Position numbers and translations under genes: made by a program
Shown: positions 7,901 through 51,152 of the stretch, piece after piece
Position numbering within the stretch: the first letter of the stretch is position 1
Layout of the letters: the number at the start of each line of letters is the position of its first letter
NCBI GenBank assembly: GCA_963840885.1
Contig: CAWJAN010000006.1
Span: 46,601-110,600, forward strand
DNA length: 64,000 nucleotides
Direction: 5' to 3'
Source: an uncultured bacterium
Lineage (GTDB): Bacteria > Patescibacteriota > Minisyncoccia > Phycocordibacterales > GWA1-40-21
The notes under the pieces: generated by a model
What the model was told of the DNA's origin: nothing
What the model saw: only the letters and a program-made list of their open reading frames with translations
Database searches by the model: none

Positions 7901-10686
7901 AATGGATTGGCTCCGGGTTCAAGTGGATTCGTACCTGGATCACCATTTGCGCGATTATCATAATTGCTCGAAACATAAGCATAATGACCGTCTATAATAA
8001 TATTTTGCGGATATAATCCGACAGATGTGGTTGCAATCTGAGAAATGTGATTAAAATCGCTATAGCTTGAGATTGCTCCGTTTACGGTCAGGACATTTTC
8101 CGGAGTCGTGGTGCCGATGCCGACATTTCCGCTTGAAGCTATGTACAAAGCGGAACGGCTGGAAGGCGATATAAAATTAGCAATATCGCTTGTCGATGAA
8201 CCGAAAACCTCCAAGCTAGCAGGCTGATTTATGGCGCTTGTATTTACAGACATGAAATTATTGTTCGGGCCAATGGCTGCAAAATAGTTTCCGCCGAAAG
8301 CTATGGCGTTCAACGGCGTAGATTCTGTAAAACTTTTTGTTGTCCAATCATTGCCATTTAAAGATTCACCGAATTCTTCGGGATTTCCGACTGCTATAAA
8401 CGTGCCGTTGCCATATGCAATGGAACTCCAAGAATCAATTGTAGGTGAATTGCCTAGAGACCAATTTATTCCGTCAGAAGAAGTGGCAAACCTGTTATGG
8501 CCTAAGGAATCGCTTCCTATAAGAATAAACATATTGTTGCCATAAACAATGGCCGTTCCACTGTTCATGGGTGATGGCACGTTTTCTGCAGTCCAGTTTA
8601 TTCCATCTGAAGACTCAATCGTATGCGAGTTATTGTTAGTTCCGACAAAAATTCCATTTGCATAAATGAAAGATGACCAGTTGGCTGCTGATGTTGGAAG
8701 ACTGCTTGTGGCCCAGTTAATACCGTCCGAAGAAGTGGCGAATTGATCGCCGCCCAGGGCGACAAACATGCCGTTGCCGTATGCAATTTGCCAAGCCCAA
8801 GTAAAATACGACGGATGCGGAGGCGGCATAGTTCCGCCAGTCCAGCTTATACCATCAGAAGAAACCGCTACATGATCACCGTTTGTACCAGCAGCTATAA
8901 ATTTACCATTCCCGTATATTAACGTTTCCCAATAATCTGATTCCGGCATGGTTCCTGATGTCCAATTTATTCCGTCGGAAGAGATTGCCAAATTGCTGCC
9001 ATTGCCGGTCGCTACAAATTTGCCATTTCCGTAGGCAATAGCGAGCCAATCGCTATTGGAGACAGGGAGAGTTCCCGTAGCAAGATTGCTTCCTTCAATA
9101 GGCTCGTGAGAATTGCCTGCTTTCACTCCGCCGGAATCATAATAAATATTCGAGCCTGAGGTCGTCCACTGTGAAAGAGACGAGCTTGCGGTAAAAACAT
9201 TCCCATTTGAATCCACACTAAGTAAGCCGCTTGAAATACCGGGAAGGGTTAATCCGAATAATGTGGTTGTTCCGGTAACGGATAGTGCTGACTCAGGTGT
9301 TGTAGTGCCGATACCTATGCGGCCGTCAGCGCCAATATAGAATACTGAAGCGGATGTCGATGAGAAAAAACTGGCGATTGTGCTTGTTCCTTGCCCGAAT
9401 ACCTGGAATGTATATGCGCCAGATGATGTTGTGGTGGATGTTGTGGTAGTGGAAATCCTTACAACAGAAATATCGCTGTCATCATCATTTGCGGTATAGG
9501 CATAATCGCCGGAAATAGCGATATCGAGCGGAAAACTGCCTACTGAAACTGTCGCACTCACTGATGGAGATGAAGGGCTGGAAATATCCAAGACTGAAAT
9601 CGTATCATCGCTACCATTCACAAGATAGGCATGCGTGCCGGAAATAGCAATGCCGCGGGGATGATTTCCAACGTTCACATCGGCAATATCGCTCGGCGAA
9701 AGCGGATTTGATATATTGATGACAGAAATCGCATCACTATTAACATCGGCTACATAGGCATAATTGCCGGAAATCGCTATGCCGTATGGGCTAGATCCCC
9801 CAGGAAGCACTGCTGTAGTGACCTCAACCGGAGCAAGCGGATTTGAAATATCTACAACGGAAACATCATCATCATCGGAGTTGGTCACATAGGCATAGTT
9901 GCCGGAAACAGCAACATCAAGAGGTGAACCGCCGACCGAAGTCGTAGCAACTTGAATTGGAGCAAGCGGATTTGAAATATCTATAACAGACATTATACTA
10001 TCGGACTCATCAGCAATATAAGCGTAATTACCGGATATTGCGATGCCTAGAGCCGTATCATAATTATTCGGATCATTACCAACAGTCGTCGTAGCGACTT
10101 GGACAGGAGCTGAAGGATTTGAAACATCAATGACAGAAAGATTGCTTGCGCCATTTGTAACATATGCATAGTTGCCGGAAACTGCGACATAGTATGAGTA
10201 ATCACCTGAATCACCTACGCTCGTCGTGGCTGTCTCGATTGGAGAGAGAGGATTTGAAACATCAAAAATGGAAAATACCGCATTGCAATTATCGGCAACA
10301 TAAACATGGTCACCTGAAGCCGCAATCCCCCATGGGCATGCATTGCCATTGTCTGTCTGAGCCGTGGTGTTTTCAACAGGAGACGCAATATAATCTACTG
10401 TCGTGGTAGAGCCGGTAGTAAAAAATGAATTCGTCGATGTGCCGACAGCAAAGTTTCCTACATTGAAAAGATTCTGATTATTTAAATCGATTGTAGATGT
10501 AGCTCCTGTAAAAGGTATAAATGTGGAAAAAAGGCTCACGCCGCAGTTCGATGTTCCCATCACGCAATCCGGATTCAGCGTTTCACCAGGAGTATAAACC
10601 GAAGCAGAAGCAAAAGTAAAAAATGCAAATATGAAATATATTGCAAATAATACAGAAGAAGTGAATTTTCTAAAGGAAATATTCAT
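1945..10686 (-). CDS. Giant secreted repeat protein of 2913 aa. It contains several blocks of LVIVD-type beta-propeller repeats, tail-fibre-like 'NVGIGTSTP' repeats and a duplicated Gly-rich module. A C-terminal intramolecular-chaperone/autoprocessing domain (peptidase S74-like) is followed by an S/T/D-rich tail.
   Basis: ORF track with an N-terminal signal peptide. Recurring LVIVD signature YAYV(A/T)...SVxDISNPxxPxxxATTxVG appears more than 20 times. 'LAVDxNGNVxATTxxSGSSQWTSTSSNIYYxxGNVGIGTSTP' appears at least three times. The C-terminal segment SDERLKNIDGDFTLGLD..INYHWN..TGFSAQNVQSVIPEAV..PIIAALVNAVKEI matches the endosialidase/tailspike chaperone-domain consensus (SDxRLKxNI...Y.W...GfiAQEV..V.PE.V...ALv.AiKEL). 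Confidence 0.9.
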   Translation of the reverse strand: MNISFRKFTSSVLFAIYFIFAFFTFASASVYTPGETLNPDCVMGTSNCGVSLFSTFIPFTGATSTIDLNNQNLFNVGNFAVGTSTNSFFTTGSTTTVDYIASPVENTTAQTDNGNACPWGIAASGDHVYVADNCNAVFSIFDVSNPLSPIETATTSVGDSGDYSYYVAVSGNYAYVTNGASNLSVIDVSNPSAPVQVATTTVGNDPNNYDTALGIAISGNYAYIADESDSIMSVIDISNPLAPIQVATTSVGGSPLDVAVSGNYAYVTNSDDDDVSVVDISNPLAPVEVTTAVLPGGSSPYGIAISGNYAYVADVNSDAISVINISNPLSPSDIADVNVGNHPRGIAISGTHAYLVNGSDDTISVLDISSPSSPSVSATVSVGSFPLDIAISGDYAYTANDDDSDISVVRISTTTTSTTTSSGAYTFQVFGQGTSTIASFFSSTSASVFYIGADGRIGIGTTTPESALSVTGTTTLFGLTLPGISSGLLSVDSNGNVFTASSSLSQWTTSGSNIYYDSGGVKAGNSHEPIEGSNLATGTLPVSNSDWLAIAYGNGKFVATGNGSNLAISSDGINWTSGTMPESDYWETLIYGNGKFIAAGTNGDHVAVSSDGISWTGGTMPPPHPSYFTWAWQIAYGNGMFVALGGDQFATSSDGINWATSSLPTSAANWSSFIYANGIFVGTNNNSHTIESSDGINWTAENVPSPMNSGTAIVYGNNMFILIGSDSLGHNRFATSSDGINWSLGNSPTIDSWSSIAYGNGTFIAVGNPEEFGESLNGNDWTTKSFTESTPLNAIAFGGNYFAAIGPNNNFMSVNTSAINQPASLEVFGSSTSDIANFISPSSRSALYIASSGNVGIGTTTPENVLTVNGAISSYSDFNHISQIATTSVGLYPQNIIIDGHYAYVSSNYDNRANGDPGTNPLEPGANPFAVVDISNPAAPRQIATTTVGGASSIGLAKSGHYVYVVNNGEFDHDISVMDVANPSDPKLIATSSVYGTYPAGIAISGHYAYVTDGGLSGDGNTISVFDISNPYAPSIIATTTVGFGPAGIAISGNYAYVTNGGDLTGVRGTTISVVDISNPHSPVEIATTTVGYVPTSISVSGSYAYVANFQGDSMSVVDISNPYAPFPVATTTVGSGAAPIDITVSGDYAYTANQQDNSISVINISNPLSPYLIGNIKTSTWCQGVAVSGNYVYSANSEFNSDTFAAGSISVVDIGGITAEGLEAGSIEAGTVNVSRGINIQDFLNVGTTLSVGSGGILSNGAISVSGTNTISYFAGNLGIGTTTPATALSVVGTSTTQGLNISNLSNTFLAVDANGNVTATTAPSGSSQWTSTSSNIYYSVGNVGIGTSTPDASLTISGSISNYITGINYSSLSPADIGTAQGGTAYIVPSPTGIGDALDDEATGTLTYIGDYDFKVYGYKLINGIKVPSQNYVDIPFTSTSSGPYAIDVSWNAVSGVDGYRVVVDDPNFSNHAVYTASTSIVYDEGNTPGIENFLYEYWAGPTDVTVYGKYLYATNNEGGSVSIFDNSNTASPVEVAAIAVGSFPQDIQVINNYLYVLNSGDSTVSVIDISSPKSPKSITTFSTQGGYSQKMVIKKENNHSYLYISNQENPPESDSTVSSVSVFDITSGTNPVFITKVSDGGNQAFGLAMSADNNYLYEANWGNLGSGTIPDSISTFDISSSSNPVLVATTTTPAGSNPSCMVVSGSYLYTSYQYIDSHSTLGQMAVFDISSSSNPIQIATTTVDINPQDISVSGNYAYLVNAESGTMSVVDISSSTNPITLDSVGAGAAPQGLAVFGNHAYVGAFGSNDITVIDLGNDFFNSIGFTTNGSLAVTSSSSSYLLGNFGIGTMNPIGMFEIDGKDSNNIANFVSSSSQSLFFIGGDGHIGLGTTIPTAQFEIDAIDGGAIANFVSSSSQSVLYVSSDGSVGVGTSTPAYPLDVNGIVNAADFYKNGMPVFSDQFLKLSQSSVQVDVLVVAGGGGGGSNGGGGGGAGGVVSTTTDIVGSQTITVGDGGSPGNNGDDSSILSITAIGGGAGGSYGGSGNTGGSGGGEAGSGGTGSAGTAGQGNKGGDNPGGNPQGSGGGGAGAAGTDSTGSNDPAGGVGTSSSISGTPTYYGGGGGGGGYDGGPSPAGDGGNGGGGAGGYVGASSGSDATTNTGGGGGGGAAANGTGGAGGSGVVIIRYLTPVSGDGTGGTITHDGAYTVHTFTSSGTFVAPAGSAVNTKYISLTSSSSLFNFDSGIVTPSLNISGLSNTLLAVDSNGNVVATTSSGGSSQWTSTSSDIYYDLGNVGIGTSTPSEALDVAGNVYASGDIVSNSSLGLSGIASSSLISSFDILAVAGGGGGGSNGGGGGGAGGVVSTTTDIVGSQTITVGDGGSPGNNGDDSSILSITAIGGGAGGSYGGSGNTGGSGGGEAGSGGTGSAGTAGQGNKGGDNPGGNPQGSGGGGAGAAGTDSTGSNDPAGGVGTSSSISGTPTYYGGGGGGGGYDGGPSPAGDGGNGGGGAGGYVGASSGSDATTNTGGGGGGGAAANGTGGAGGSGVVIIRYLTPVSGDGTGGTITHDGAYTVHTFTSSGMFTPPAATSSITKSITLDNGVFSLDTGLITYGNVGLGTSTPSALLTVSGTLQFSSLGSAGATLITDSLGNVTVSSDERLKNIDGDFTLGLDAVKGLTPINYHWNAISGLDMTNQYTGFSAQNVQSVIPEAVATDSRGYLTLADRPIIAALVNAVKEIGSFISSVGDGLAHLTGIAIGTSQSPEGITMYDQITGQPYCIIISNGILTNVVGACQLQSTSSIQISSSDSVASDTTEIQSSDASSTDDASTTTTSTSSSDTIATSTSTSTTSSDDASTSTDDSIVSTSTSDTSSNDASLATSTDDTATSSDATSTDTADSSSDATSTDTTASSTDSGN
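2941..4763. repeat. Tandem direct duplication inside the giant gene. The period is 1089 bp, and about 734 bp are nucleotide-identical (2941..3674 and 4030..4763).
   Basis: Identical sequence blocks are visible, for example ggttcctccggttccgtctccgctcactggagtcaaatatctgatgattacgacgcc at 2999 and 4088. Two byte-identical spurious plus-strand ORFs sit at 3150..3497 and 4239..4586, offset by 1089 bp. The encoded identical segment is about 245 aa, running from AGGGGGGSNGG to GVVIIRYLTPVSGDGTGGTITHDGAYTVHTFTSSG. Confidence 0.9.
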
Positions 10687-10762: not shown

Positions 10763-13700
10763 TTACACCACCAAATTCTCATTCACAATCCCTCCTTTCA
10801 GGTCTACAACGGGAGATTTGAAGGCTTCCGTGTAAGATTCATCATCGTTCTTCCTATCGATCTTCAGATAGTATCTTCCTTGGGGGAGAAGGATGTAATA
10901 TCTGCCGTATTTGTCTGCGATTTTCTTGGCGATAGGAGAATCATCCTGGCCTTCCCTGTAGATCTTGATTACTGCAAATGAGAGCGGCAGGCCTGTTTTG
11001 GAATCCTTGATCGTTCCAGCTTTCTTCGTCCTGAAGACGACATAGTTCAGGAGATACGCGATGACATAGAGGCCGGCAACGATGAGGTTGTAAGGCGCTG
11101 GAGCGAAGATGAGGGCGATGAGCGCGACGAAAGCGCCGATGACGAAGAGCAGATCATATATCCTTGACCAGATTACTGTGGAACCTTTGGTGAAAGTATT
11201 CATGTTTGCCCTGTTCTTGGCGAACTCGTTCCAGTCGAATTTCAAAGGATCCATCGGGATATTCTTGGTGATGATTTCTCCGAGAGATCCGATGACGAGC
11301 TCTTCTCCGTGATAGAGGTCGTTGTAAACGTCGTCGAATGTGCCGAGAATCTTCTTTGACGGGAAAGAATAGTTGGTCTTCTGGGCCATGATCCTGTACT
11401 TGCCGGGCATTACGAGGAATCCGTATCTGCCGTCGAGGTCCGTGATTGCGGTGGCTGCGGTTTTGTTGGTCGCGATATCGATGAGCGTCACGTAAGCCGG
11501 ATCGAGAGGACGCTTCGTTACGGAATCATATACTGTTCCCCATTTTCTCTGCTTTTTCTTCAGGCCTAAGGATTCGGATAGCAAGCCGAAGAATCTTGCC
11601 GGTATGGTCCAGGTTTCAGACCAGGTCAGGGGGTTAACGAAAAGAAGCGCGGCTGAATATGCGATGCCTCCGATGACAAGGCCGACGGTCGAGATTACTT
11701 TGACCACTATGGAACCGACAGGATCGTTTACGGTAGAGCTTGCCATTCTGATTATTGGATTTAATGTATCCGATATTCCCTTGATGGCATTGTTGAAAGA
11801 TTGAGAATTCGATACTGGTGCCGTTGGTGCGGGAGTTGGAGTCGGAGTTGGCGCAGGTGCTGGAGTTGGCAAAGGTGTTGGCACAGGAGTTGGCAAAGGT
11901 GTTGGCGTAGGGGTTGGTGTCGGAGGTTCAGGAGGAACGACTGGAAGAGGTTCGGTCTGGCATCCGAGGATGTCATTGGCTTTCTTCCTTGAATAGTATC
12001 CGAAGTTTCCTGTTCCGCTTGAAAGTCCGTATGGAGAGAGGATGTCGCTTGCATATGCGTTCTGGAAATTGGTGACTGAATCTGCAGTTACTGTTCCGTA
12101 ATATTCCATCTCGGAACCTAGTGTTTCCGGACCGCTTGTGGCCTGATCGAATCCGTTGGTGTTCAGGAATATCTGGAGATCCTTAACGTCAGGATCAGAT
12201 GTTCCCGGCATGAGGTTCTTGGTGAAGCAGAATCCTTTAGGCAATGTCGGAGGGATGATTACTGGAGGGGTTGAGGTTGCAGGCGTGGTTGTTGCGGGGG
12301 TGGTGGTTGGAACGATAGGAGGTTCGGTTGAACCGCCGGATGGGCCTGTATATGGAGGCAAAACCGGTGTAGGCAGAGTCGTGGTTGCTCTTCTTCCGTG
12401 TGGACGATGGGGAAACAGCCAGTTGACGTCTGAGCCTCCGTCTACACAGCCGTTAGTGCAGTCGAAGGCGTCAGCGGAAAGATTGGTTGAGCCTGAGACA
12501 TCTAAAAATGAAAATGAAGATGTGCCTGAACCGGTTTGCAGTATATTGAAAGGAACTATAGCTGGTGGAGAAAACTTTTGAACATCGCCGCCATTATGCC
12601 CGTAGTCGGCAACATATATATTGTTATTCGAATCAACCGTTAATTGCGTAGGATTGGAAAATTGTCCATCGCTAGTCGTGCCGAATGTGCCGAATTGGCT
12701 AATCAATGAAAGATCCGAATCAAGCTTAACGACATTATGATTGCCTGAATCGGATACATATAAATATCCGTTTGAATCTACGGCTACGCCGTATGGTGAG
12801 CTGACATCTGTATATGAAGAAACGTAAGAAAGGTCGGATACATTAAATTTTACGATTCGATTATGCCCAGTATCGGCAAGATAAATAAAAGTTCCCGCCG
12901 GATCAACGGCGAGCGAACCGCTAGTCGAATTAAAGCTGAAACCTTGGCTGTTGGCGGAAGTGGTTGATGCAATAAGGTTAAAATTTGAATCCAATTTCAA
13001 TATTCCGCCGGTTGGGCCGTAATTGCTGGTGACATATATATTGCCGGATGAATCAACGGCAATGCCTCCGGAAATACCGGTGCTCTGAACTGATGGAATC
13101 GTAGTGATATCCGGGGAAGATATCAAAAAATTACCGCTGGGATCAAATTCCATAATTTTATTACTCGATCCGTTCGCTACGTACAAATTATCCGAAATAT
13201 CAGTGGATAATTGCACCGGATCAGAAAGCGAACTTGTCGCAATGGTGTTTATCAAATTGCCGGAACTGTCGAATTCTTTTATATAATTTCCAAAATAATC
13301 CGAAACATAGATATTATCTGCCGAATCATGGGCTACTCCAAAGGTTAAGCTAAGCGATGATAACAATTCGCTATTAAATTGAGGAATGGAAGCCCCTCCA
13401 GTATTTATTGAAAGAAGATTGCCAGAGCTTCCGGACAGAGAAATGCTGCCGGATATGGTTGTCGTGGCAGTCTGATCGAATAAAAGCGATGAGCCCGATG
13501 ATGAAAACTTGGTCAAATTAGGAAATGTGTTTGAACCGGAAATGGTTTGGGAGGATGTTCCTGTAAAATTAACCGTGCCTGAAGAGCTTGCGCTCGTATC
13601 TTCAAGTATTCCGCCTGTATTCGACCAATTGCCATAAACATTCAGTATATATCCGTTTAAATCAAGAGTTCCTCCGTCTACTAAAACAAGACTGCGAATA

Positions 13701-15079
13701 TTTTCATCCTGATAAAGTGTGACTGTTCCGGTGCTTATCGTCGCATCACTCGTCTCATCTGTCGATGTCGATATAAAATTTATTGCTCCCCCACCTGTTA
13801 TAAGCGTTCCGCCGGTGTTTATAAAATTCCACCAATGGCCGCTAAAATTTAATGTGTAAGATGACAGGTCTAGCGTTCCTCCGGATGCCAAAATAAGGCT
13901 ATTAACATTTTGATCTTGGGTCAGGTCGATAGTCCCAGTATTTATAGTTGCGCTGTCGGAAGATCCAGGAAAATCAATGCCTTCAACGGGAACATACCCT
14001 GATGGAAGCACGAGTCCGTTATAGGTGGTCGAAGCGGTGCCGTCCGGATTAACGACGGTTATATTATTGTTATGAGCATCGGTAACATAAATATATCCTG
14101 ATGTCGTGAGAGCCATACCAAAAGGCTGAGAAAATCCGAATGAAGAATAAGTTGTCGAAGCGGTGCCGTCCGGATTGTAGACCACGATACGATGCGATCC
14201 ATTGGATTCCAATGCGTATATATCTCCCGATGAGGAGAGTGCCACGTTTTCAGGGACGAAAAGTCCGCTGCCGTTATAGCTTGTCGAAGCGGTGCCGTCC
14301 GGATTTAAGATATCAATGCGGTTATTCGAAGCATCGGCAACATATATTTCTCCTGAAGGCGAAAAAGTTATGCCGAAAGGATATATCGGAGCCAGGCTTC
14401 CTCCGTCATAGCTTGTGGATGCTGTGCCGTCCGGATTTAAGATGACAATTCTGTTATTGCCTTCATCGGATACATAAATATCTCCGGATGGGGAAACTAT
14501 TACGTATCTAATATTGCTAAAAGGGGCCAGGCTTCCGCCGTTATAGCTTGTCGAAGCGGTGCCGTCCGGATTTAGGACAACGATTCTATTATTTGAAGCG
14601 TCTACTATGTACATTTCTCCTGACGGTGAGAGATTTATTCCTACGGGACCGATTGGAGCCAAGCTTCCGCCGTTATAGCTTGTGGATGCTGTGCCGTCCT
14701 GGTTCAGGACTACTATTCTATTATGTCCGTTATCAGCTATGTATATTTCTCCAGAGGTAGATGAAATCGCCAAATTATAAGGAGCGCTAAAACCAATTAA
14801 TCCTCCGTTTGTTCCCCAGGTAGTGGTGCTATTCCAGTCACCGCCTGAGCTTGTGTTGAAGGCGGTTGAAAAATTATTGCTGGAATTTGAAACGAATATC
14901 TTTTTAAAATTTTCGTTAGAAAATAAAAAAACTGCTGAAATTATTAAAATTATGAGTAGGAATATTGAAATAAATCCTGCTGGTTTCGCCTTTATTTCTG
15001 TAAATTTCATTTGGTGGATTAGGATTATTATTGCTACGGTGTTTATTATAATAGATTTTATAATAAAGACACTAATCAC
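10763..15079 (-). CDS. Large secreted surface protein of 1438 aa. It has two blocks of NHL-type beta-propeller repeats, a PT-rich linker and a putative peptidoglycan-binding-like segment. The conserved C-terminal multi-TM anchor module is shared with the 250..1941 product.
   Basis: NHL repeat signature SPSGE(I/M)Y(I/V)(A/S)DxxNNRIV(V/I)LNPDGTASTSY appears at least six times, and a second block reads IYVSDYFGNYIKEFDSSGN / LYVADTGHNRIVKF / LYVSDSGNHNVVKL. The linker is PTPTPTPTPLPTPVPTPLPTPAPAPTPTPTP. 'DVKDLQIFLNTNGF...YYGTVTADSVTNFQNAYASDIL' resembles a PG_binding_1 domain. The C-terminal module aligns with the 563-aa protein. Confidence 0.9.
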   Translation of the reverse strand: MISVFIIKSIIINTVAIIILIHQMKFTEIKAKPAGFISIFLLIILIISAVFLFSNENFKKIFVSNSSNNFSTAFNTSSGGDWNSTTTWGTNGGLIGFSAPYNLAISSTSGEIYIADNGHNRIVVLNQDGTASTSYNGGSLAPIGPVGINLSPSGEMYIVDASNNRIVVLNPDGTASTSYNGGSLAPFSNIRYVIVSPSGDIYVSDEGNNRIVILNPDGTASTSYDGGSLAPIYPFGITFSPSGEIYVADASNNRIDILNPDGTASTSYNGSGLFVPENVALSSSGDIYALESNGSHRIVVYNPDGTASTTYSSFGFSQPFGMALTTSGYIYVTDAHNNNITVVNPDGTASTTYNGLVLPSGYVPVEGIDFPGSSDSATINTGTIDLTQDQNVNSLILASGGTLDLSSYTLNFSGHWWNFINTGGTLITGGGAINFISTSTDETSDATISTGTVTLYQDENIRSLVLVDGGTLDLNGYILNVYGNWSNTGGILEDTSASSSGTVNFTGTSSQTISGSNTFPNLTKFSSSGSSLLFDQTATTTISGSISLSGSSGNLLSINTGGASIPQFNSELLSSLSLTFGVAHDSADNIYVSDYFGNYIKEFDSSGNLINTIATSSLSDPVQLSTDISDNLYVANGSSNKIMEFDPSGNFLISSPDITTIPSVQSTGISGGIAVDSSGNIYVTSNYGPTGGILKLDSNFNLIASTTSANSQGFSFNSTSGSLAVDPAGTFIYLADTGHNRIVKFNVSDLSYVSSYTDVSSPYGVAVDSNGYLYVSDSGNHNVVKLDSDLSLISQFGTFGTTSDGQFSNPTQLTVDSNNNIYVADYGHNGGDVQKFSPPAIVPFNILQTGSGTSSFSFLDVSGSTNLSADAFDCTNGCVDGGSDVNWLFPHRPHGRRATTTLPTPVLPPYTGPSGGSTEPPIVPTTTPATTTPATSTPPVIIPPTLPKGFCFTKNLMPGTSDPDVKDLQIFLNTNGFDQATSGPETLGSEMEYYGTVTADSVTNFQNAYASDILSPYGLSSGTGNFGYYSRKKANDILGCQTEPLPVVPPEPPTPTPTPTPLPTPVPTPLPTPAPAPTPTPTPAPTAPVSNSQSFNNAIKGISDTLNPIIRMASSTVNDPVGSIVVKVISTVGLVIGGIAYSAALLFVNPLTWSETWTIPARFFGLLSESLGLKKKQRKWGTVYDSVTKRPLDPAYVTLIDIATNKTAATAITDLDGRYGFLVMPGKYRIMAQKTNYSFPSKKILGTFDDVYNDLYHGEELVIGSLGEIITKNIPMDPLKFDWNEFAKNRANMNTFTKGSTVIWSRIYDLLFVIGAFVALIALIFAPAPYNLIVAGLYVIAYLLNYVVFRTKKAGTIKDSKTGLPLSFAVIKIYREGQDDSPIAKKIADKYGRYYILLPQGRYYLKIDRKNDDESYTEAFKSPVVDLKGGIVNENLVV

Positions 15080-25430: not shown

Positions 25431-27548
25431 TTATAGCCTGTTTAGGAGCGCTCTCGTACCAGGACCGACTTGGCCTAGCTGGTCGAGGCCATATGCTTTT
25501 TGCAAAGCCTTAACCGCAGCAACGGTTACGCTTCCGAAGTAGCCCGTATCGGTAGGATATGTAAAGTATCCGAGTTGTCTCAGTTTGGCTTGCAGCTGAG
25601 TTACTGCCGTTCCTGAATATCCGAGCTGCAAATGTTCCGTGAACGCAAATGATGAAGCAGAACTTGAAGTCGTTGTCGTAGTCGTTACGCCAAGAATTGA
25701 AACTGAAATTGAAGAACAAACATTGGACGATGAGCAGACAGAAAGCACTGCGGATCCGGCTTGATTGCCTGTAATATTCAATGCGCTTCCGCTTACATAA
25801 ACCCCGACAGCGTTAGGATTAGAATTGTATGAAATATAATATCCCACTCCGGAGCCGCCATATATATTTACATTCTTATTTCCGCCAACATATAAGCTGA
25901 CAGAATTCTGGTCAAATGTTATAGGAGCAGCGCTTACATTACTCACTGCATTTCCGACCGATACGTACAAAGAATTGCACTGGCCTCCGGTCTGGCATAC
26001 GAGCAGATTCGCAGAACCGGCGGCAATGCCCGTAAGCACTATACTGGAACCGCTTATAGAGCCGGAAACAATTCCGGGATTCGAATTATTTGAGATGAAA
26101 TATCCTCCATTGCCTACGAGATATACCGCAGCTGTCTGGCTCGGACCAAGAACCACATTGTTCTGACTGAAAGTCGGCTGGACAGTTGAAACTGTTGTGC
26201 CGTTTCCGTTTACATTAACATTAAGCGTTATACATCCTCCGGCATTTGAACAAACGCTTGCCGACGATGCGCCTTGGCTTATACCAGTAATGGTGACGAT
26301 TTGCCCATTTAAGCTATAGCTTGCTTTTCCGTCATTATTCTGAATAACAGCGTAAGGCATCGTTCCGCCCGTAACAGAAATGCTTATGACTTGTCCCGCA
26401 GTAAGAGACAGATTATTCTGGCTTAAATTTATTGCTCCTCCTGATGCACCGCTCACCGTAACGGAAACTGTTCCGCAATTTCCGGAAACTGAACATACCG
26501 TTATAGAAGAATTTCCCGGAGTATTTCCGTAAATTACCAGGCTGCTCGTGGAAATATATGTCTGCGCGGAATTGGTATTTGAATTTGAAGAAACGTAATA
26601 ATTTCCTGAGCCGCCATAAACAGTGATGTTTTGCGTCTGGCCTGTGATAACGATTGCGTTGTTATTGCTGAAAGTGAGGCCTGTTGAAGAATATGTTCCT
26701 ATTGATGCCGTTATCACTCCGCATGCGGAAGAATCCGTCGAACAAACAGTAATAGTTGATGAACCCGTAGTGCCGATAGCAGACAGCGTAAGAGTCGGTC
26801 CGTTAAAGCTCGTGCCTATGATGCTTGGAGCGGAATTATATTGGGCCGTATAAAATCCGTTTCCTCCTGAAATGGAAATCTGGACGCTCTGACCGCTCAC
26901 TACGCTTACATTATTCCGGCTGAAATTCAGGGTATTAGATGAGGATTGCACTATCACATAGATGCTGGCGCAATTGGAATTCGATGAAGAGTTTATAAGG
27001 CAGACATTTGCCGTCGTCTGTCCCGCAGAAAGTCCGGTTACAGTTATTTGGTTTCCGCTGAAAGAGACATTGGCGACCTGCGGATTCGTATTGCTCGAAA
27101 GATAAAGCAATTGCGAGCCTGTATTTTGCGCAGTGAGGGTGGAAGATTGCCCGGCATTAAGGACGACGCTTGACTGGCTCAGGCTGAAATTAGACGATAC
27201 GGCATTTCCATATGACCACGATATGGGAGACGATGTCTGATTGTTTACGGAAACGCTTACATTGCTGTTTTCCACTATGTCATAGTCGGAAACGCCGAAT
27301 GATGTGGAAAAATTACCGGTTGAATTCGTTGTTCCGATGTATTTCCCCTGCAGCCCAGATGCATTGGACGAATAGTAATACATTATTACGCCGGAATTTG
27401 CATCGCCTACTACGTTCATATCTATAGTATTGGAATTGCTGCTGTCTACGGACATGTAAAGGGACGGGGTCATCGCATAAGCGGTGCCGGCCGAAAGAGC
27501 CGAGATAATGATGAGTAATGCCGTCAAATTTCTGAATAGTGCTTTCAT
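25431..27548 (-). CDS. Secreted surface protein. It has about seven tandem ~100-aa Ig-like (Big-type) repeats and a C-terminal peptidoglycan-binding domain (PG_binding_1).
   Basis: Signal peptide. The repeat pattern FSQNNVSL..GQSxxI.ISGG.G.Y.....NSNP....ISGS.LxLTGxxAGSxxITVCSxxGxC...V.V recurs about seven times. The C-terminus AVTQLQAKLRQLGYFTYPTDTGYFGSVTVAAVKALQKAYGLDQLGQVGPGTRALL fits the PG_binding_1 consensus. Confidence 0.8.
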   Translation of the reverse strand: MKALFRNLTALLIIISALSAGTAYAMTPSLYMSVDSSNSNTIDMNVVGDANSGVIMYYYSSNASGLQGKYIGTTNSTGNFSTSFGVSDYDIVENSNVSVSVNNQTSSPISWSYGNAVSSNFSLSQSSVVLNAGQSSTLTAQNTGSQLLYLSSNTNPQVANVSFSGNQITVTGLSAGQTTANVCLINSSSNSNCASIYVIVQSSSNTLNFSRNNVSVVSGQSVQISISGGNGFYTAQYNSAPSIIGTSFNGPTLTLSAIGTTGSSTITVCSTDSSACGVITASIGTYSSTGLTFSNNNAIVITGQTQNITVYGGSGNYYVSSNSNTNSAQTYISTSSLVIYGNTPGNSSITVCSVSGNCGTVSVTVSGASGGAINLSQNNLSLTAGQVISISVTGGTMPYAVIQNNDGKASYSLNGQIVTITGISQGASSASVCSNAGGCITLNVNVNGNGTTVSTVQPTFSQNNVVLGPSQTAAVYLVGNGGYFISNNSNPGIVSGSISGSSIVLTGIAAGSANLLVCQTGGQCNSLYVSVGNAVSNVSAAPITFDQNSVSLYVGGNKNVNIYGGSGVGYYISYNSNPNAVGVYVSGSALNITGNQAGSAVLSVCSSSNVCSSISVSILGVTTTTTTSSSASSFAFTEHLQLGYSGTAVTQLQAKLRQLGYFTYPTDTGYFGSVTVAAVKALQKAYGLDQLGQVGPGTRALLNRL

Positions 27549-28316: not shown

Positions 28317-28619
28317 ATGAAAGGATTCATGGATTTCATCAGAGGACAAGGCGTCGTAGGGCTTGCTTCCGGATTTATTCTGGGAGGAGCGGTTTCAAAA
28401 GTCGTCGCAGCCATAGTGACTGATTTGGTAAATCCTATTTTAGGATTGGCGCTCGGCCAGATCAAAGGACTGGAAACGGCATCGCTAGATATCGCCTCTG
28501 CTCATATAATGTATGGCGACCTCATCAGCGTTCTGATAGATTTTTTTGCCGTGGCATTCGTCGTCTACTTCGGCGTCAAGGCTATACATTTGGATAAGCT
28601 GGATAAGCCGAAAGTCTAG
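28317..28619 (+). CDS. mscL: Large-conductance mechanosensitive channel MscL.
   Basis: MKGFMDFIRGQGVVGLASGFILGGAVSKVV...DLVNPILG is the canonical MscL N-terminus and TM1. Confidence 0.85.
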   Translation: MKGFMDFIRGQGVVGLASGFILGGAVSKVVAAIVTDLVNPILGLALGQIKGLETASLDIASAHIMYGDLISVLIDFFAVAFVVYFGVKAIHLDKLDKPKV

Positions 28620-31793: not shown

Positions 31794-31865
31794 GCTCCCA
31801 TCGTTCAATGGATAGGATAAATCCTTGCGAAGGATTTGATGTAGGTTCGATTCCTACTGGGAGCA
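31794..31865 (+). tRNA. tRNA-Arg (anticodon GCG).
   Basis: GCTCCCA TC GTTCAATGGATAGGAT AA ATCC TTGCGAA GGAT TTGATG TAGGTTCGATTCCTAC TGGGAGC A. Its body is paralogous to the TCT tRNA-Arg at 20001..20072. Confidence 0.7.
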
Positions 31866-31954
31866 CATGCATGCCTGCAGAACTATGGCCGAAAAAGGAG
31901 ATTGTGCGACTTCAAAAGCGCCCAGTTGGGCGCTTTTAAATTTAATAACAAAAA

Positions 31955-32167
31955 CTATTTTAAACCAATTTTTATGCCTTTTTTAACATCTTTTCCAAAT
32001 TGAACGGATTTATCAACGATTGATTTTCTTTTTGACGCACTATTGTTCCATTTTTTCTTTAAATCTTTTGCAATCTTTTCCCCTTTGTTTTTTAAAACCG
32101 AATACTCTTTTGCACTATTGGAAACAATTTTACTTACCGCTTTTACTACTTTTTTGTTTTCTTTCAT
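31955..32167 (-). CDS. Small lysine-rich protein, hypothetical.
   Basis: 70-aa ORF only. Low complexity. Confidence 0.25.
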   Translation of the reverse strand: MKENKKVVKAVSKIVSNSAKEYSVLKNKGEKIAKDLKKKWNNSASKRKSIVDKSVQFGKDVKKGIKIGLK

Positions 32168-32199
32168 TTTTGTTTATATTAACTATTAAATTATATGAT

Positions 32200-32837
32200 T
32201 TAATTTTCTCTATCAGCATACACAACGAGTCTATTGGAATAACTTTTCTTTGCTGCATTCCAGATCCCCTCACAAGTGATAAGATTTAGATGCGACTTAC
32301 CATCTTTCGAATCAAACACATTTGTAGAATTTCCATTCTCAGTGTATGTCCCAAGCTCTCCTACCACAAAGGTAGTTGTAGCTCCTTTATCATCCACCAC
32401 ATAAATTTTATCCCTTATATGCAGCTTGTATAAATTATCAAACACTGCAGGTATATTATTTTTCCAGCCATAGTGCCCAGCGACTACCGCACTGCCAATA
32501 TCTCCTGGACGTGGTCCCAAATCAAACCAAGCCACGTCATTTGGGCCTTTTGGTACAGCCATGGCTCCATCTGATGTTAAACCAACATATTCGAATGTTG
32601 CATCAACATTAATGTGTGGACGGACAAGCGAATCGGAAGTCGAGGCTGACGGCTTGTAGATGTACCGCTTTTTGATCTTACATTAATCAAATCTTGCAAG
32701 GCTTGGCTTATTGTCGGTGGAATCGGTATAGGTGCAGTGTAAGAATCCTGAGTGATAATATTTGTATTTAGAAGATATATGTAGGTTGCAGACAATATAA
32801 CTATAATACTGACTGTAATATATAGTGATAATTTCAA
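32200..32837 (-). pseudogene. Sortase (transpeptidase) gene interrupted by a frameshift near 32563..32601. The N-terminal TM/linker part is at 32577..32837 and the catalytic domain at 32200..32562.
   Basis: The catalytic-domain ORF carries the sortase His (AVVAGHYGW), Cys (HLNLITCEG = TLxTC motif) and Arg (NRLVVYADR) signatures, but lacks its own N-terminal anchor. The upstream ORF (MKLSLYITVSIIVILSATYIYLL...) supplies a TM anchor and linker but is in a different frame. Stops are at 32577 in one frame and 32602 in the other. Combined length of about 226 aa fits a class E/F sortase. Confidence 0.45.
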
Positions 32838-32957
32838 TGATATTTTTTCCTTGCATATTTTTCAATACTATCGGAAAAGTAAAGTCCTCTAAGGCAGAGA
32901 TTTTACTTCCTCTAGCTTAAACAAATTTATTTTAACAATAAATTCTATACTAGATTT

Positions 32958-34598
32958 TTATTCTTCTTTGGAAAACTCACAAACTAAAGAAACAACCAGT
33001 ACGAGTATGATAGCTGAAAGCAATACTGTAAGCCATGAGACAGTTACTCCTTCTGGTGTAATCCCTGTATTAGGGAGATTCGGTGTGTTAACAAGAACGT
33101 TAGCAAAAGCAAAGGCTACCGCCGATAAACCATTTGCATCTCCTTTGACCGTAGCAATATTATCTGTTGAAACATTAATGTTTGTTTTACAGGTATATGT
33201 CCATATTTCATTTGAATCAAGTAATTTATTTCCATTGTTATCACCGGAAATAAATGTTATTGCTGCACATTTATTATCAGTAAGTGAAACATTGTGAATT
33301 GGAACTGTTCCTGAATTAATTACTGTATATTTATAAGTAACATCACCACCTCCAAAAGTAAACGGTGTTAACTGATTAGGAACTACTACGAGATTAATGA
33401 GTGGTGGCTGTATTGAACTTCCAACTACTACAGTGGCTATCGCAGTAGCAATCGCTGTATGATAATAAGCATCATCGCTATGACCAGTTGCTATGGCAGT
33501 ATTTGTAGTAGTGCTAGTAAGTGTTGTTGAACAAGTATATTTCCAATTTTCTCCGGGATCAAGCTTCTTATCACCGTTCAAATCACCAGAAGAATAAACG
33601 ACGGGAATACATTTATCATCAACAACCGTAACATCAACTAATGCCTGCTGTCCACCAACATTCCAAACATTGTAATTATATGTGACTTTTCCAGATCCAG
33701 CTGATAAAGCTAAAGGACTAGGAACTTTTGTAATTCCAATTAATGGAATTATTGATACTACACCCGGTCTATGTCCTTTAGCAGTAACAACAACCGGTGC
33801 ATTAGATAGTGAAATTGTGTTGCTAATAAGTGTAACTGCGGTTTGTGCCAATGCTCTTCCATTTAATGTCGCACCTGCTCGCATCGCAATATCCGTTTGA
33901 GCTAAAATGATACCTTGCATTTGTGAACCGGCTAAAAGATTTACTGTTCCTGCAACCTGCCAGAAAACATTCTTGGCTTGAGCGCCTCCGCTTAATATGA
34001 TTTTTTTACCGACTGCAAGATCAAGTGTCCCTGATATTTGGAAAACCCAAACATCATTTGCTCCACCTGAAAGTGTGACGTCATTTGTTATTGTTACATT
34101 ACTGCCCCAGGTATAAACACCGGGAGCAAGTGTCATAGTTCCTACTGTTCCGGCACCAATATTTAAATTTGGACCAACTCCAGCTGGTGTTGCTGGTGCT
34201 GAAGCATTGGTATATGCGATTCCCATATCTGAAACAGCATTATCAACTAAAGTTTTGTTTGCTCCAGGTCCAGGCATTACACAAGTATTATCAAAACTTC
34301 CTCCGGGACCACCTGCAAATGTAGCTAATGCATCAACTGTATAAATTGAACCAGTAATTTCTCCGCAAGTAACGCCAATTTGCGCACCACTACCAGCACT
34401 ATTACCAATATTTCCGGTAATAATCGAAGTCGGTACATCAGTAATTCCTGTTTCACCAAGAATTACAAAATTATTCGTATCTATTGATCCCAAATTTATT
34501 GGTGCTGGACCAGCAGCAAATGCAGCAACAGGACCAATAAAACCAATGACTAGAGAAACAATTATCGTTGATATTGAACTCTGACTAAATTTTTTCAT
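32958..34598 (-). CDS. LPXTG-anchored surface protein. It has an N-terminal ice-binding-like beta-helix domain (DUF3494), two DUF11-like Ig-fold repeats and a C-terminal LPNTG sorting signal.
   Basis: After the signal peptide, AAGPAPINLGSIDTNNFVILGETGITDVPTSIITGNIGNSAG and ...NDVWVFQISGTLDLAVGKKIILSGGAQAKNVFWQVAGTVNLLAGSQMQGIILAQT...GRALAQTAVTL match DUF3494. Two repeats read GxVTYxYxVxNxG...VxDxKC...SGDxNGxxxLDxxExWxYTC. The C-terminus LPNTG is followed by a hydrophobic helix and a short charged tail. Confidence 0.85.
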   Translation of the reverse strand: MKKFSQSSISTIIVSLVIGFIGPVAAFAAGPAPINLGSIDTNNFVILGETGITDVPTSIITGNIGNSAGSGAQIGVTCGEITGSIYTVDALATFAGGPGGSFDNTCVMPGPGANKTLVDNAVSDMGIAYTNASAPATPAGVGPNLNIGAGTVGTMTLAPGVYTWGSNVTITNDVTLSGGANDVWVFQISGTLDLAVGKKIILSGGAQAKNVFWQVAGTVNLLAGSQMQGIILAQTDIAMRAGATLNGRALAQTAVTLISNTISLSNAPVVVTAKGHRPGVVSIIPLIGITKVPSPLALSAGSGKVTYNYNVWNVGGQQALVDVTVVDDKCIPVVYSSGDLNGDKKLDPGENWKYTCSTTLTSTTTNTAIATGHSDDAYYHTAIATAIATVVVGSSIQPPLINLVVVPNQLTPFTFGGGDVTYKYTVINSGTVPIHNVSLTDNKCAAITFISGDNNGNKLLDSNEIWTYTCKTNINVSTDNIATVKGDANGLSAVAFAFANVLVNTPNLPNTGITPEGVTVSWLTVLLSAIILVLVVSLVCEFSKEE

Positions 34599-34840
34599 AT
34601 TTTATTTATTGTTAATTTATAATTATTATTAATTTATTTTCAAACTTACTTAATATATTCTAGTTGAAATTTGACGATTATTTTTATATTTATGTATTTT
34701 ATTCGACCAAAAGTAGATATTTAGATGCTTTTTGAATAGAATCGCGATTGATTCATCAGCAATACCTGCACATAGTGTATCAATAATATGAATTTACTAC
34801 TAATATAGATATGTTTACAAGATATTATTTATATTTAAAA

Positions 34841-35298
34841 GTCGCACAATCTCCTTTTTCGGCCATAGTTCTGCAGGGATGACATTGATAGTCTCTGGGA
34901 AGAAAGACAAGAGCAAATAGAAATTGAAGAACTTGATGCAAATGGAGAGAATCTTGAAGTTGATGAGGGACTAGAGGTGTGTCTTTGTGATATAGATAAA
35001 GATGCTTGCCCATTACATAATATGGAAGAAAATGAAGAATAAATCACAAAAACAATGCGATGATTTACTCACTCCCATAATAAAGAAGTTGTTTCCTAAA
35101 TGTTTGCTTTGTGGTGGTGAAACGCAGGTGGCACACCATCACTGCCATAAAAGTAAAAGTTTAGTTCTTCGGTATGATTTAAAAAATTTAATTCCGCTTT
35201 GTAATAGTTGTCATTTCAAACTTCATTTTAATGAAAGTTTCTGGGCATCAAAGATAGTTCAGTCGCACAATCTCCTTTTTCGGCCATAGTTCTGCAGG
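34841..35298. mobile_element. Small cassette bounded by perfect 37-bp direct repeats (gtcgcacaatctcctttttcggccatagttctgcagg at 34841..34877 and 35262..35298). It carries an HNH nuclease ORF.
   Basis: Both copies were read directly from the sequence, with 421-bp spacing. The flanking sequence differs. The cassette sits in an intergenic island between the LPXTG protein gene and ppa. Confidence 0.4.
35032..35289 (+). CDS. Small freestanding HNH endonuclease. The start used here is the second Met; the ORF track begins at 35002.
   Basis: MKNKSQKQCDDLLTPIIKKLFPKCLLCGGETQVAHHHCHKSKSLVLRYDLKNLIPLCNSCHFKLH. The CxxC...HH...N...CxxCH pattern is an HNH/zinc-finger nuclease motif. The last nine codons read into the right-hand direct repeat. 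Confidence 0.6.
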   Translation: MKNKSQKQCDDLLTPIIKKLFPKCLLCGGETQVAHHHCHKSKSLVLRYDLKNLIPLCNSCHFKLHFNESFWASKIVQSHNLLFRP

Positions 35299-42361: not shown

Positions 42362-43570
42362 TTAATTTTCTTTTTCGTCGTAAATTGCGTTCAATAAGCT
42401 GAATGTTTTTTGGCCAAAAGTATTTTCTCCGGTAATGCCGTATTTTTTCTGAAAAGCTTTTACCGAAAGATTCGTGCATGTTCCTATGGCTCCGCTGTGA
42501 GGGCATTCGTTTCTCGTCATGCCGGCTGGCGGATAATCCCCGTCCATTATAAGCGCGGTCTGCATGGCATAAATATCTTCAGCATTCGAGCTTGCACTCG
42601 TCACCGGCTCGGTCCAATCATATATATTCTTGCTCGGCTCATATGAAGAAGTGGCCGTAACATTGTCATTTCCGGTGTAGTAGTCTTGCAAACCAAGATA
42701 TGTCTGGTATGCAAGATCTTTGAGAGCGATGCTGCGCGTCAGCGGATTTACGAATTGCGGTTCATATATGTAATCGTATTCTATAAGTATAGCTGCCGGC
42801 TTTGCGGTATTATAAGCGCCGATTCCGATAAGCTGAGGATCGGCAACGAGGCCTGGCTCTTGCACAGGAAGATCGCTTGTCGGATTATACAGACTCAATC
42901 TTTTAAAAACCGCTTCGGCAACAGGTTTTGTGGTGGAACCGTTATCGTAAATATCAGGCGGCATATATTCCACAAAACCGGTGTATTTGCCGACAGCATT
43001 GTATGAATTGCCGCGATAATTATTTACGCAGATATTTATCATGAAGTTTATATCGTTTTCATTCGCCCACTTGGTGGCTCCGTAGATTCTTATGGCATCG
43101 TCTGTCGGCGCTGTATTATGGACTTCGCCGTCGTTGAAAATAGCAGCAATCGCGGGATTTTGAAGAGAGGATTGTTTTGACGCTTGTTCCCAACTTACAA
43201 TATCGTTCCAGTTATTCTGAAAATATTCGGTGAAAGTAGGACTCCATGATTTCGTGTCTCTGGTCGTTGTAGCATTATAGTTTCCGTCAGCTTGCAGAAA
43301 AGCCTGCAGATCCTGGCCGATTTCCACGGCCAAATCGCGCTCATATATTTCGCCGGACGGTGTTGCCATTTCAGTTCCTCCTTCGTCCGGTTCATGCGCG
43401 GGCACGATAAGGACATTTATTTTTTTTGAACTGCTTGCCGATGTATCTGAGGCTGGAACATTCGCCGTCATTGTCGGCGCGAACTTGAAAATATAATGAT
43501 TAGCGGCATATAAAACGCCTGCTATCGCAACGATTCCCAAAAATAATTTAAAAATCAGTTCTTTTTTCAT
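42362..43570 (-). CDS. Secreted cell-wall hydrolase-like protein (possibly amidase-like) with a C-terminal peptidoglycan-binding domain.
   Basis: N-terminal TM/signal. VLIVPAHEPDEGG...ERDLAVEIGQDLQAFLQADGNYNATTTRD loosely resembles the MurNAc-LAA (Amidase_3) N-terminal pattern. The C-terminus IYAMQTALIMDGDY...TCTNLSVKAFQKKYGITGENTFGQKTFSLL fits PG_binding_1. Confidence 0.55.
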   Translation of the reverse strand: MKKELIFKLFLGIVAIAGVLYAANHYIFKFAPTMTANVPASDTSASSSKKINVLIVPAHEPDEGGTEMATPSGEIYERDLAVEIGQDLQAFLQADGNYNATTTRDTKSWSPTFTEYFQNNWNDIVSWEQASKQSSLQNPAIAAIFNDGEVHNTAPTDDAIRIYGATKWANENDINFMINICVNNYRGNSYNAVGKYTGFVEYMPPDIYDNGSTTKPVAEAVFKRLSLYNPTSDLPVQEPGLVADPQLIGIGAYNTAKPAAILIEYDYIYEPQFVNPLTRSIALKDLAYQTYLGLQDYYTGNDNVTATSSYEPSKNIYDWTEPVTSASSNAEDIYAMQTALIMDGDYPPAGMTRNECPHSGAIGTCTNLSVKAFQKKYGITGENTFGQKTFSLLNAIYDEKEN

Positions 43571-50532: not shown

Positions 50533-50853
50533 TCAACCTTTCTTTTTTTTCTGTTTCTCAATGTCTTCAATAGCTTTATCCATATGATACTGGGTCTTCA
50601 AATTATCCACGAGCCCGTAGCCAAGAATCTTTTTGGCTAACTTTTGGACAGCGGGCGCAGCCAAAAATTTCTGCCATCTTTTAGATTTGGACTGAAAGTC
50701 TAAACCGATAGAACGATCAGTGGAATATTTAATATAAATGGCCAGATCCAGAGGATATTTTAACTTTTTTAAAGACTTCTCCCAAAATTGAAGTTGTCTC
50801 TCGTCAACCATAAACTTGACCGGAACTAAAACTACCTTCTTTTGCTTTGCCAT
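50533..50853 (-). CDS. Hypothetical protein.
   Basis: 106-aa ORF. Confidence 0.45.
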   Translation of the reverse strand: MAKQKKVVLVPVKFMVDERQLQFWEKSLKKLKYPLDLAIYIKYSTDRSIGLDFQSKSKRWQKFLAAPAVQKLAKKILGYGLVDNLKTQYHMDKAIEDIEKQKKKKG

Positions 50854-51152
50854 TTAAACCACCAACCTTTCTTTTTACTTTATAAAATATGAAGAACCGC
50901 TTGTTTAGAATAGTCGCATTATCAAATATCAAAGTCAACTTTTTTACTGATAACAAAAATATCCTTATTTTAAGCCATTTTTTAAGGACAAAAATACCCT
51001 TATTCTTCAACATATTTTAACTTCATAGCTTTTAACTATAAACTTGTTCACCTCTATTGTGCTAAAAAACCTTTATATTATAATGATATTAAGGGTTATT
51101 TATAGAAATCTTGGTCGAGTTTAAAAGTTATTTTAACCATAATTGATAAACC

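Follow-up and report, generated by a model that had tools for sequence, protein, structure and literature searches.

The window analysed here, a stretch of 64,000 nucleotides (nt) of contig CAWJAN010000006.1 from an uncultured bacterium of the Patescibacteriota (assembly GCA_963840885.1), encodes on its minus strand an intact surface protein with a C-terminal LPNTG motif and, downstream of it on the same strand, a sortase gene whose reading frame is broken. The sortase gene (32200..32856) was ancestrally 218 codons long and is interrupted by two 1-nt insertions or deletions (indels). Comparison with related genomes points with moderate confidence to a conserved surface-display cassette of the Patescibacteria whose sortase gene has here been inactivated. 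An earlier note on this DNA, made from the sequence alone, had described a frameshifted sortase beside its likely substrate; a broken sortase beside an intact LPNTG substrate is confirmed here with corrected coordinates, and the interpretation offered with it is supported in part. The lesion itself is either an ordinary pseudogene or an assembly error in a common cassette.

The broken sortase gene

The catalytic domain and the transmembrane (TM) anchor of the sortase lie in different frames, as had been noticed from the sequence. An open reading frame (ORF) of 120 amino acids at 32200..32562 on the minus strand matches the sortase family PF04203 (E=3e-19, 69.4 bits against a cutoff of 26.6) over profile positions 23-124 of 125 only, and lacks both the TM anchor and strand β1. 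The catalytic His (codon 32473..32475, in AGHYGW), Cys (32272..32274, in LNLITCEG) and Arg (32230..32232, in NRLVV) are encoded in this ORF and occupy invariant columns in an alignment of the repaired window protein with 12 intact homologues. The N-terminal fragment, an ORF of 86 amino acids at 32577..32837 on the same strand with its stop codon at 32577..32579, consists of the TM helix and the PIPIPPTISQALQDLI linker and runs out of frame past LPIRLSV. When the two fragments are joined at LPIRLSV/PHINVDA, the resulting repaired protein of 218 residues aligns end to end, at 57-64% identity, with intact sortases of about 200-220 residues, with which it shares the PIPIPP(V/T)ISQALQ(N/D)LI linker and the LP(V/I)RLxIPxIxVDA strand. 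The upstream fragment is therefore a true sortase N-terminus, as the earlier note had assumed. The membrane anchor and the complete catalytic barrel are not found in one ORF, strand β1 being split at 32619/20. The fragment of 120 residues is stored as an ordinary protein (P0015, identical; P-numbers denote homologous proteins of the public protein set) in a set derived from NCBI and ENA. This entry is an annotation artefact of the frameshift and calls for caution in annotation.

The two lesions have been placed by comparison with orthologues. When the sortase alignment was used to query genomes, each species being represented by a single one, 79 sortase loci were obtained, almost all labelled as Patescibacteria or as plain uncultured bacterium; the genome of the window itself is not among the GTDB representatives scanned. 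Since the sortase gene in the three nearest syntenic loci among them (L005, L006 and L080) starts ATG CAA TCG AAA ATC TCA CTG AAG in a single frame, the window sequence ATG CAA GGA AAA [A]AT ATC contains an extra A, giving an A6 run at 32843..32848 (minus strand) where the orthologues imply A5. The ancestral ATG at 32854..32856 is in the catalytic frame, and the ATG frame ends at a stop codon at 32683..32685; the sequence ISLKLSLY resumes in the TM frame after the A6 run. Homologous sortases begin MQxK(I/K)(S/I)LK(L/W)SL, and MQxKISLKLSL is conserved in the three syntenic loci, P0009 and P0030. A TTG codon at 32835..32837 (minus strand), with AAGGA 10 nt upstream, is a candidate substitute start in the TM frame; lying 19 nt downstream of the ATG, it could bypass this first lesion at the cost of six residues only. 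At the second site, a codon-level comparison with eight orthologues together with the protein alignment has shown the sequence to be one base short between 32620 and 32619 (32619..32620, minus strand). The window reads cgc ttg tcc gt-cca cac att aat gtt gat gca (RLSVPHINVDA) where an orthologue reads cgt ctc ttg att cct aaa atc aag gtt gat gct. The split into two frames described by the earlier note is thus confirmed, but the note placed the frameshift at 32560..32610, about 10-60 nt downstream of the real site, and missed the extra A.

The second lesion has no bypass and is the predicted inactivating one, cutting the anchor and strand β1 off the catalytic barrel. It would part the TM anchor and linker of 86 residues from a catalytic domain of 120 residues that has neither an export signal nor β1. 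Neither fragment would then be able to act at the outer face of the membrane, and the sortase is therefore most likely inactive in this genome. A functional split enzyme, with both fragments made and associating, is hardly credible. Both fragments are ORFs with possible starts (TTG at 32837 with the upstream AAGGA; ATG at 32562), but the catalytic fragment without its export signal would be cytoplasmic, its conserved first β-strand (LPxRLxIPxIxVDA) is encoded out of frame, and no split homologue is seen among the 79 loci. Recoding or phase variation, by which ribosomal or transcriptional slippage or slipped-strand mutation at both sites would restore a full-length sortase in some molecules or cells, is very unlikely. 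The A6 run lies just past the start codon, where tRNA-Lys might conceivably slip by +1 on AAA-A, and a shift of +1 followed by one of -1 cancels out, so that the ATG frame is the catalytic frame. The run is short, however, two independent events are needed, and the second site (tcc gtc cac) lacks a slippery heptamer and offers no re-pairing for a -1 shift. Moreover, the orthologues are read in a single frame, so the two-frame layout is not conserved. The programmed slippage that the earlier note had allowed for thus finds no support.

The repaired sortase matches the class F model NF033748 with E=1.4e-32 over profile positions 7-153 of 155, at 112.5 bits (curated cutoff, 166), and the L005 orthologue, which is intact, likewise scores under that cutoff (117.7 bits). 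Class F is by far the best sortase class (class E, 23.9 bits), and "class F sortase" is the NCBI name of close homologues. The enzyme is accordingly best described from its sequence as class-F-like, below the NCBI class F cutoff. A search of the PDB with the single sortase sequence gives no match, and profile matches are weak, the best being 4D70, a sortase-family chain, at E=9e-5. Like the class F sortases of NF033748, for example actinobacterial SrtF acting on LPXTG proteins, the window enzyme has a single N-terminal TM anchor, the His/Cys/Arg set, a TLxTC-like LITCEG motif and an LPXTG-type substrate; it differs from them in its score below the cutoff, its Patescibacteria clade, its position beside one substrate, its broken gene and the lack of a close solved structure. 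The earlier note had called it a housekeeping sortase, a label that finds no support here; in standing beside a single substrate, the enzyme is like a dedicated sortase. SrtB-IsdC of Staphylococcus aureus is such a dedicated sortase-substrate gene pair, with the variant motif NPQTN. The window pair is like it in that the sortase gene lies beside the substrate gene on the same strand across a short, hairpin-bearing spacer, and is unlike it in its canonical LPNTG motif, in its DUF3494/CLIPPER_2 substrate (see below) and in being known from sequence alone.

Real mutation or assembly error

A recent, real inactivation of the sortase gene, which would leave a pseudogene, is judged fairly probable. 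In an intactness control, essentially every other sizeable ORF of the window was compared with Pfam. In about 40 other genes that match a Pfam family, the match spans essentially the whole profile and no frameshift is apparent; they include those for TIM, RecJ, pyrophosphatase, S20, RuvA, Fpg, Mur ligase, ClpP, RNase Y, the ATP synthase subunits and the CCA-adding enzyme, and ORFs of 2913 and 1438 amino acids are unbroken. Together, 42 intact window genes (45.9 kb) contain 382 A/T runs of at least five, 146 of them of at least six, and 458 G/C runs of at least three, and no frameshift. Since the rest of the window is clean in this way, a random sequencing error is unlikely and a real mutation is favoured. 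Under a uniform error rate, two errors in one gene of 657 nt are very improbable (less than 1% by our own estimate). The data favour a course in which a first hit was followed by neutral drift, the alternative being a strictly local assembly problem.

One suspected frameshift patch, at 50.4-51.6 kb, was rejected on inspection: the small overlapping ORFs at 50533..51013 have no family match, and an intact HU gene lies on the other strand. The MscL homologue at 28317..28619 on the plus strand is short (100 amino acids, covering profile positions 2-97 of 123), and in a protein of 402 amino acids at 42362..43570 on the minus strand the match to Amidase_3 is confined to the first 52 profile positions. 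Since neither ORF is interrupted, both are probably lineage-specific variants rather than frameshifts.

The conservation of the broken gene bears on its age. Among the 43 sortase columns that are at least 95% conserved, three differ in the window protein, one of them by a Gly-to-Arg change, and the catalytic residues are kept. Since so few conserved columns have changed and the catalytic residues are retained, the lesions would be recent. A leave-one-out test for decay of the sortase is not significant: at the 95% level, 3 of 43 is tied for the maximum, and at 85%, 5 of 72 columns differ against a median of 4.

Several observations weigh against a real mutation. The lesions are known from an assembled consensus, and both lie in or beside short homopolymers (A6 at the first site; CC, possibly CCC, at the second), which are prone to consensus errors. 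A local artefact of low coverage or of strain mixture would not appear elsewhere in the window, and the near-absence of decay together with the intact substrate gene fits a mis-sequenced intact gene as well as it fits a very young pseudogene. The public protein set contains the species on a single contig (210,238 bp), which leaves no independent assembly to confirm the lesions; exact look-up finds no independent contig with an identical product of 546 or 120 residues or P0015. Within the 64-kb window, which the search for sortases covered, no second sortase was found.

These points lend some weight to an assembly or sequencing artefact, in which the gene is intact and both 1-nt indels are consensus errors at short homopolymers, arising for example from long reads, low local coverage or mixed strains. 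Besides the homopolymers at both sites, it is favoured by the repaired protein, which looks like any other member of the family and keeps every invariant residue, by the undamaged state of the substrate gene and of the remaining cassette, by the origin of the sequence from a single metagenome-derived contig, and by the fact that several related assemblies are long-read metagenome-assembled genomes (MAGs), such as the MFD "contig_" records. On the other hand, no other gene of the 64 kb carries a frameshift in spite of its many A/T runs, a uniform process would not be expected to place two errors less than 230 nt apart in a single small gene, and a CC/CCC run is no typical error hotspot. The artefact is possible but the less likely reading, and we infer that the inactivation is probably real.

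The LPNTG surface protein

The substrate gene (32958..34598, minus strand) is intact, and its product of 546 amino acids consists of a putative signal peptide, a DUF3494 β-helix, two Ig-like domains of the CLIPPER_2 family and the LPNTG motif. The putative signal peptide, read from the sequence, comprises residues 1-28 (34515..34598; MKKFSQSS to VAAFA, followed by AG), with a basic n-region, a hydrophobic core and an AFA-A cleavage site. An AlphaFold2 model of the whole protein, based on an alignment of 35 homologues, has a mean predicted confidence score (pLDDT) of 79 and places a helix with low pLDDT at residues 6-20. The sorting signal at the other end (32961..33077) consists of LPNTG (33063..33077; residues 508-512, within NLPNTG), a hydrophobic helix and the tail EFSKEE. 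Leu-508, Pro-509 and Thr-511 are invariant or nearly so in the 35 homologues, and the tail holds one Lys only whereas those of orthologues end in KKGKNKTKV. A six-frame scan of the 64-kb window finds no second LPXTG-type C-terminus, so that the motif and helix reported by the earlier note are present and are the only ones of their kind there. No match above 68% identity to the protein is found in a set of 15 billion proteins.

The head domain, residues 46-262 (33813..34463), has the DUF3494 or IBP-1 fold, as had been claimed from the sequence. It matches the Pfam family Ice_binding PF11999 with E=4.4e-55 (187 bits against a cutoff of 28.7) over profile positions 1-207 of 208, and a sequence search of the PDB matches ice-binding proteins (IBPs) at E~1e-49. 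Foldseek aligns the domain at TM scores of 0.83-0.88 and 40-44% identity with the IBP of Ca. Cryosericum (9LI0), ColAFP (3WP9) and FfIBP (4NU2), and the predicted model shows the β-helix with a flanking helix (residues 115-133) packed on it. The NCBIfam equivalog IBP_CFB scores 209 bits, under its cutoff of 400. ColAFP, FfIBP and the IBP of Ca. Cryosericum odellii share with the head the whole β-helix and the flanking α-helix; they are free, secreted single-domain proteins of cold-adapted organisms with measured ice activity, whereas the window protein is a predicted cell-anchored head on an Ig-like stalk. The lineage of the window includes MAGs from groundwater, bog and soil. Ice binding by the head is putative; no sequence motif defines the ice-binding face.

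The head is followed by two tandem stalk domains, residues about 287-392 and about 401-501 (33096..33740). They are modelled as two β-sandwiches with pLDDT above 90 at residues 287-392 and 401-501, and a C-terminal helix follows at residues 522-544. The earlier note had assigned them as two DUF11-type repeats. The two repeats are present, but their best match is PF24346 (DUF7507, that is CLIPPER_2, a DUF11-like family with a CnaA-like Ig fold; 36.9 bits in two stretches against a cutoff of 27, E=3.9e-09), and DUF11 itself (PF01345, 17.1 bits) and TIGR01451 (22.1 bits) fall just under their cutoffs. The candidate isopeptide residues of repeat 1 are well conserved across the 35 homologues (Lys-291 in 29, Asp-327 in all 35 and Asn-366 in 34). 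In repeat 2 the Lys column, which lies in the VKVP strand, holds Lys in 31 of the 35, the window protein alone having Val-405 (codon 33384..33386); the neighbouring DDKC reads DNKC in the window protein, and the Asn column is unconserved.

CLIPPER and CLIPPER_2 domains (DUF11/DUF7507) are described as forming isopeptide-stabilised stalks in fibrillar adhesins (bioRxiv 10.1101/2025.04.25.650565). The window protein resembles these adhesins in its putative signal peptide, its N-terminal putative binding domain, its tandem CnaA-like Ig stalk and its C-terminal sorting signal, and its repeat 1 keeps the candidate Lys/Asp/Asn triad. It differs in being very short, with two stalk domains in 546 residues, and in a repeat 2 without the usual Lys. 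With a DUF3494 head on two CLIPPER_2 domains and a sorting signal, it may be regarded as a miniature fibrillar adhesin.

Other products encoded in the window touch on the cell surface. Peptidoglycan genes occur there, namely those for a Mur ligase, an amidase and a PG_binding_1 protein. A protein of 705 amino acids at 25431..27548 on the minus strand, with Big_2 and pilus-N-like matches and a C-terminal PG_binding_1 domain, is a second surface candidate, one that would be wall-bound non-covalently. The two giant uninterrupted ORFs at 1945..10686 (2913 amino acids) and 10763..15079 (1438 amino acids), both on the minus strand, presumably encode large surface proteins and lack an LPXTG-type C-terminus; they are adjoined by a protein of 563 amino acids with a CarboxypepD_reg-like domain (250..1941, minus strand). 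On the opposite strand, directly upstream of the substrate gene, an ORF of 95 amino acids at 35002..35289 on the plus strand has weak matches, below the Pfam cutoffs, to HNH endonuclease and DUF968, and no counterpart of it was found in the related loci searched.

The cassette in related genomes and its meaning

The window has a G+C content of 35-48%, small genes, 11 tRNAs, an F-type ATP synthase operon and PilM/PilN, and its nearest relatives are all MAGs of Patescibacteria (candidate phyla radiation, CPR), mostly labelled Paceibacterota or Minisyncoccia. A match to the protein of 546 residues is present at 66 of the 79 sortase loci and a match to its DUF3494 half at 53, and at 39 an IBP-like gene lies directly upstream of the sortase on the same strand. 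At L005, L006 and L080, a gene for an IBP of 552-558 amino acids with LPNTG is followed by an intact sortase gene of 206-207 codons and then by a small Lys-rich ORF. Nearly all 79 loci have an intact sortase ORF with a TM helix; the few exceptions without one are probably accounted for in several cases by an over-strict TM pattern and by Gracilibacteria with an alternative genetic code. In Gracilibacteria UGA is read as Gly. The sortase ORFs of two gracilibacterial loci (L071 and L072) look truncated under translation table 11, and this truncation probably reflects the alternative code and not broken genes.

The substrate belongs to a large family, which counts 5219 proteins at E<=1e-10, and NCBI calls several of them "ice-binding family protein". 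Of the 120 IBP homologues nearest to the window protein, no fewer than 97 bear an LPxTG-type signal, most often LPNTG (64 of the 120). Since the gene pair is conserved in relatives and LPNTG dominates among the homologues, the LPNTG protein is the likely substrate of the sortase, as the earlier note had proposed. Whereas that note had regarded a DUF3494 protein on a sortase pathway as notable in this lineage, the loci of relatives indicate that the pairing of DUF3494 with a sortase is the rule there and not an oddity of one genome. About nine of the 120 best homologues end in PG_binding_1 instead of LPXTG (P0148, P0156, P0161, P0163, P0167, P0180, P0200, P0228 and P0238), and these C-termini therefore provide an independent pointer to the cell wall as the destination. 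Some sortases carry PG_binding_1 themselves (P0037, P0076, P0092 and P0104). The occurrence of this domain in both partners suggests that covalent and non-covalent attachment to the wall may be interchangeable in the family.

Two further features accompany the pair. Directly downstream of the sortase gene lies a small Lys-rich ORF of 70 amino acids (31955..32167, minus strand; 43% identity by tblastn) without a Pfam or NCBIfam match. Its counterparts occupy the same position at L005 (6512..6781) and L006 (6581..6850), both of 89 amino acids, and at L080 (5952..6212, 87 amino acids), and the ORF possibly belongs to the cassette as a third component. The spacer of 101 nt between the substrate and sortase genes contains a stem-loop at 32873..32910 on the minus strand (RNA fold of 32850-32965, ΔG -22.1 kcal/mol, z -2.35), and a different, perfect hairpin lies at the same spacer position in L005 (about 5778..5812). 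The stem-loop is possibly a partial terminator or attenuator; as an attenuator within the operon it may give a high ratio of substrate to sortase. In a promoter and terminator scan of 31850..35050, sites are no more numerous than in shuffled sequence.

The arrangement in relatives leads to a plausible scheme for the cassette. The substrate would be exported by the Sec pathway and held in the membrane by its C-terminal helix. The sortase, a type-II-anchored, class-F-like cysteine transpeptidase, would cut between Thr and Gly of LPNTG through a thioacyl intermediate on its Cys and hand the substrate on to a precursor of peptidoglycan, so that the protein becomes fixed to the thin cell wall; this chemistry is taken over from what is known of the sortase family. 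For the genome of the window we infer that, in the absence of cleavage, the C-terminal helix would keep the substrate tethered to the membrane, unless the genome encodes a second sortase, outside the window, that processes it.

Architectures combining DUF3494 with DUF11 and with PEP-CTERM have been catalogued in Arctic metagenomes (PMC9957290), and sortases are known in CPR genomes (PMC7143001). A search of the literature found no paper linking DUF3494 to a sortase or LPXTG, nor one describing such a cassette in CPR bacteria. A bolder view, which is speculative and on the present evidence unlikely, is that the DUF3494/CLIPPER_2/LPNTG protein and its dedicated class-F-like sortase form an undescribed, lineage-wide surface module of the Patescibacteria, that the β-helix is an adhesin, for example for a host surface or a polysaccharide, and not an antifreeze, and that the loss of the sortase shows covalent anchoring to be dispensable, a membrane tether or PG_binding_1 sufficing.

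The frameshift itself is a minor matter: in a metagenome-derived genome, a single gene has been inactivated or mis-assembled. The small LPNTG-anchored protein with the IBP fold and its own sortase constitute one of the most recurrent surface cassettes of the Patescibacteria/CPR. It has been little studied, and the surface biology of these bacteria, including host attachment, is poorly understood. If the lesion is real, the genome would represent a natural sortase knockout in which the substrate has been kept, and it would bear on whether ultra-small cells need covalent anchoring of their surface proteins to the wall.

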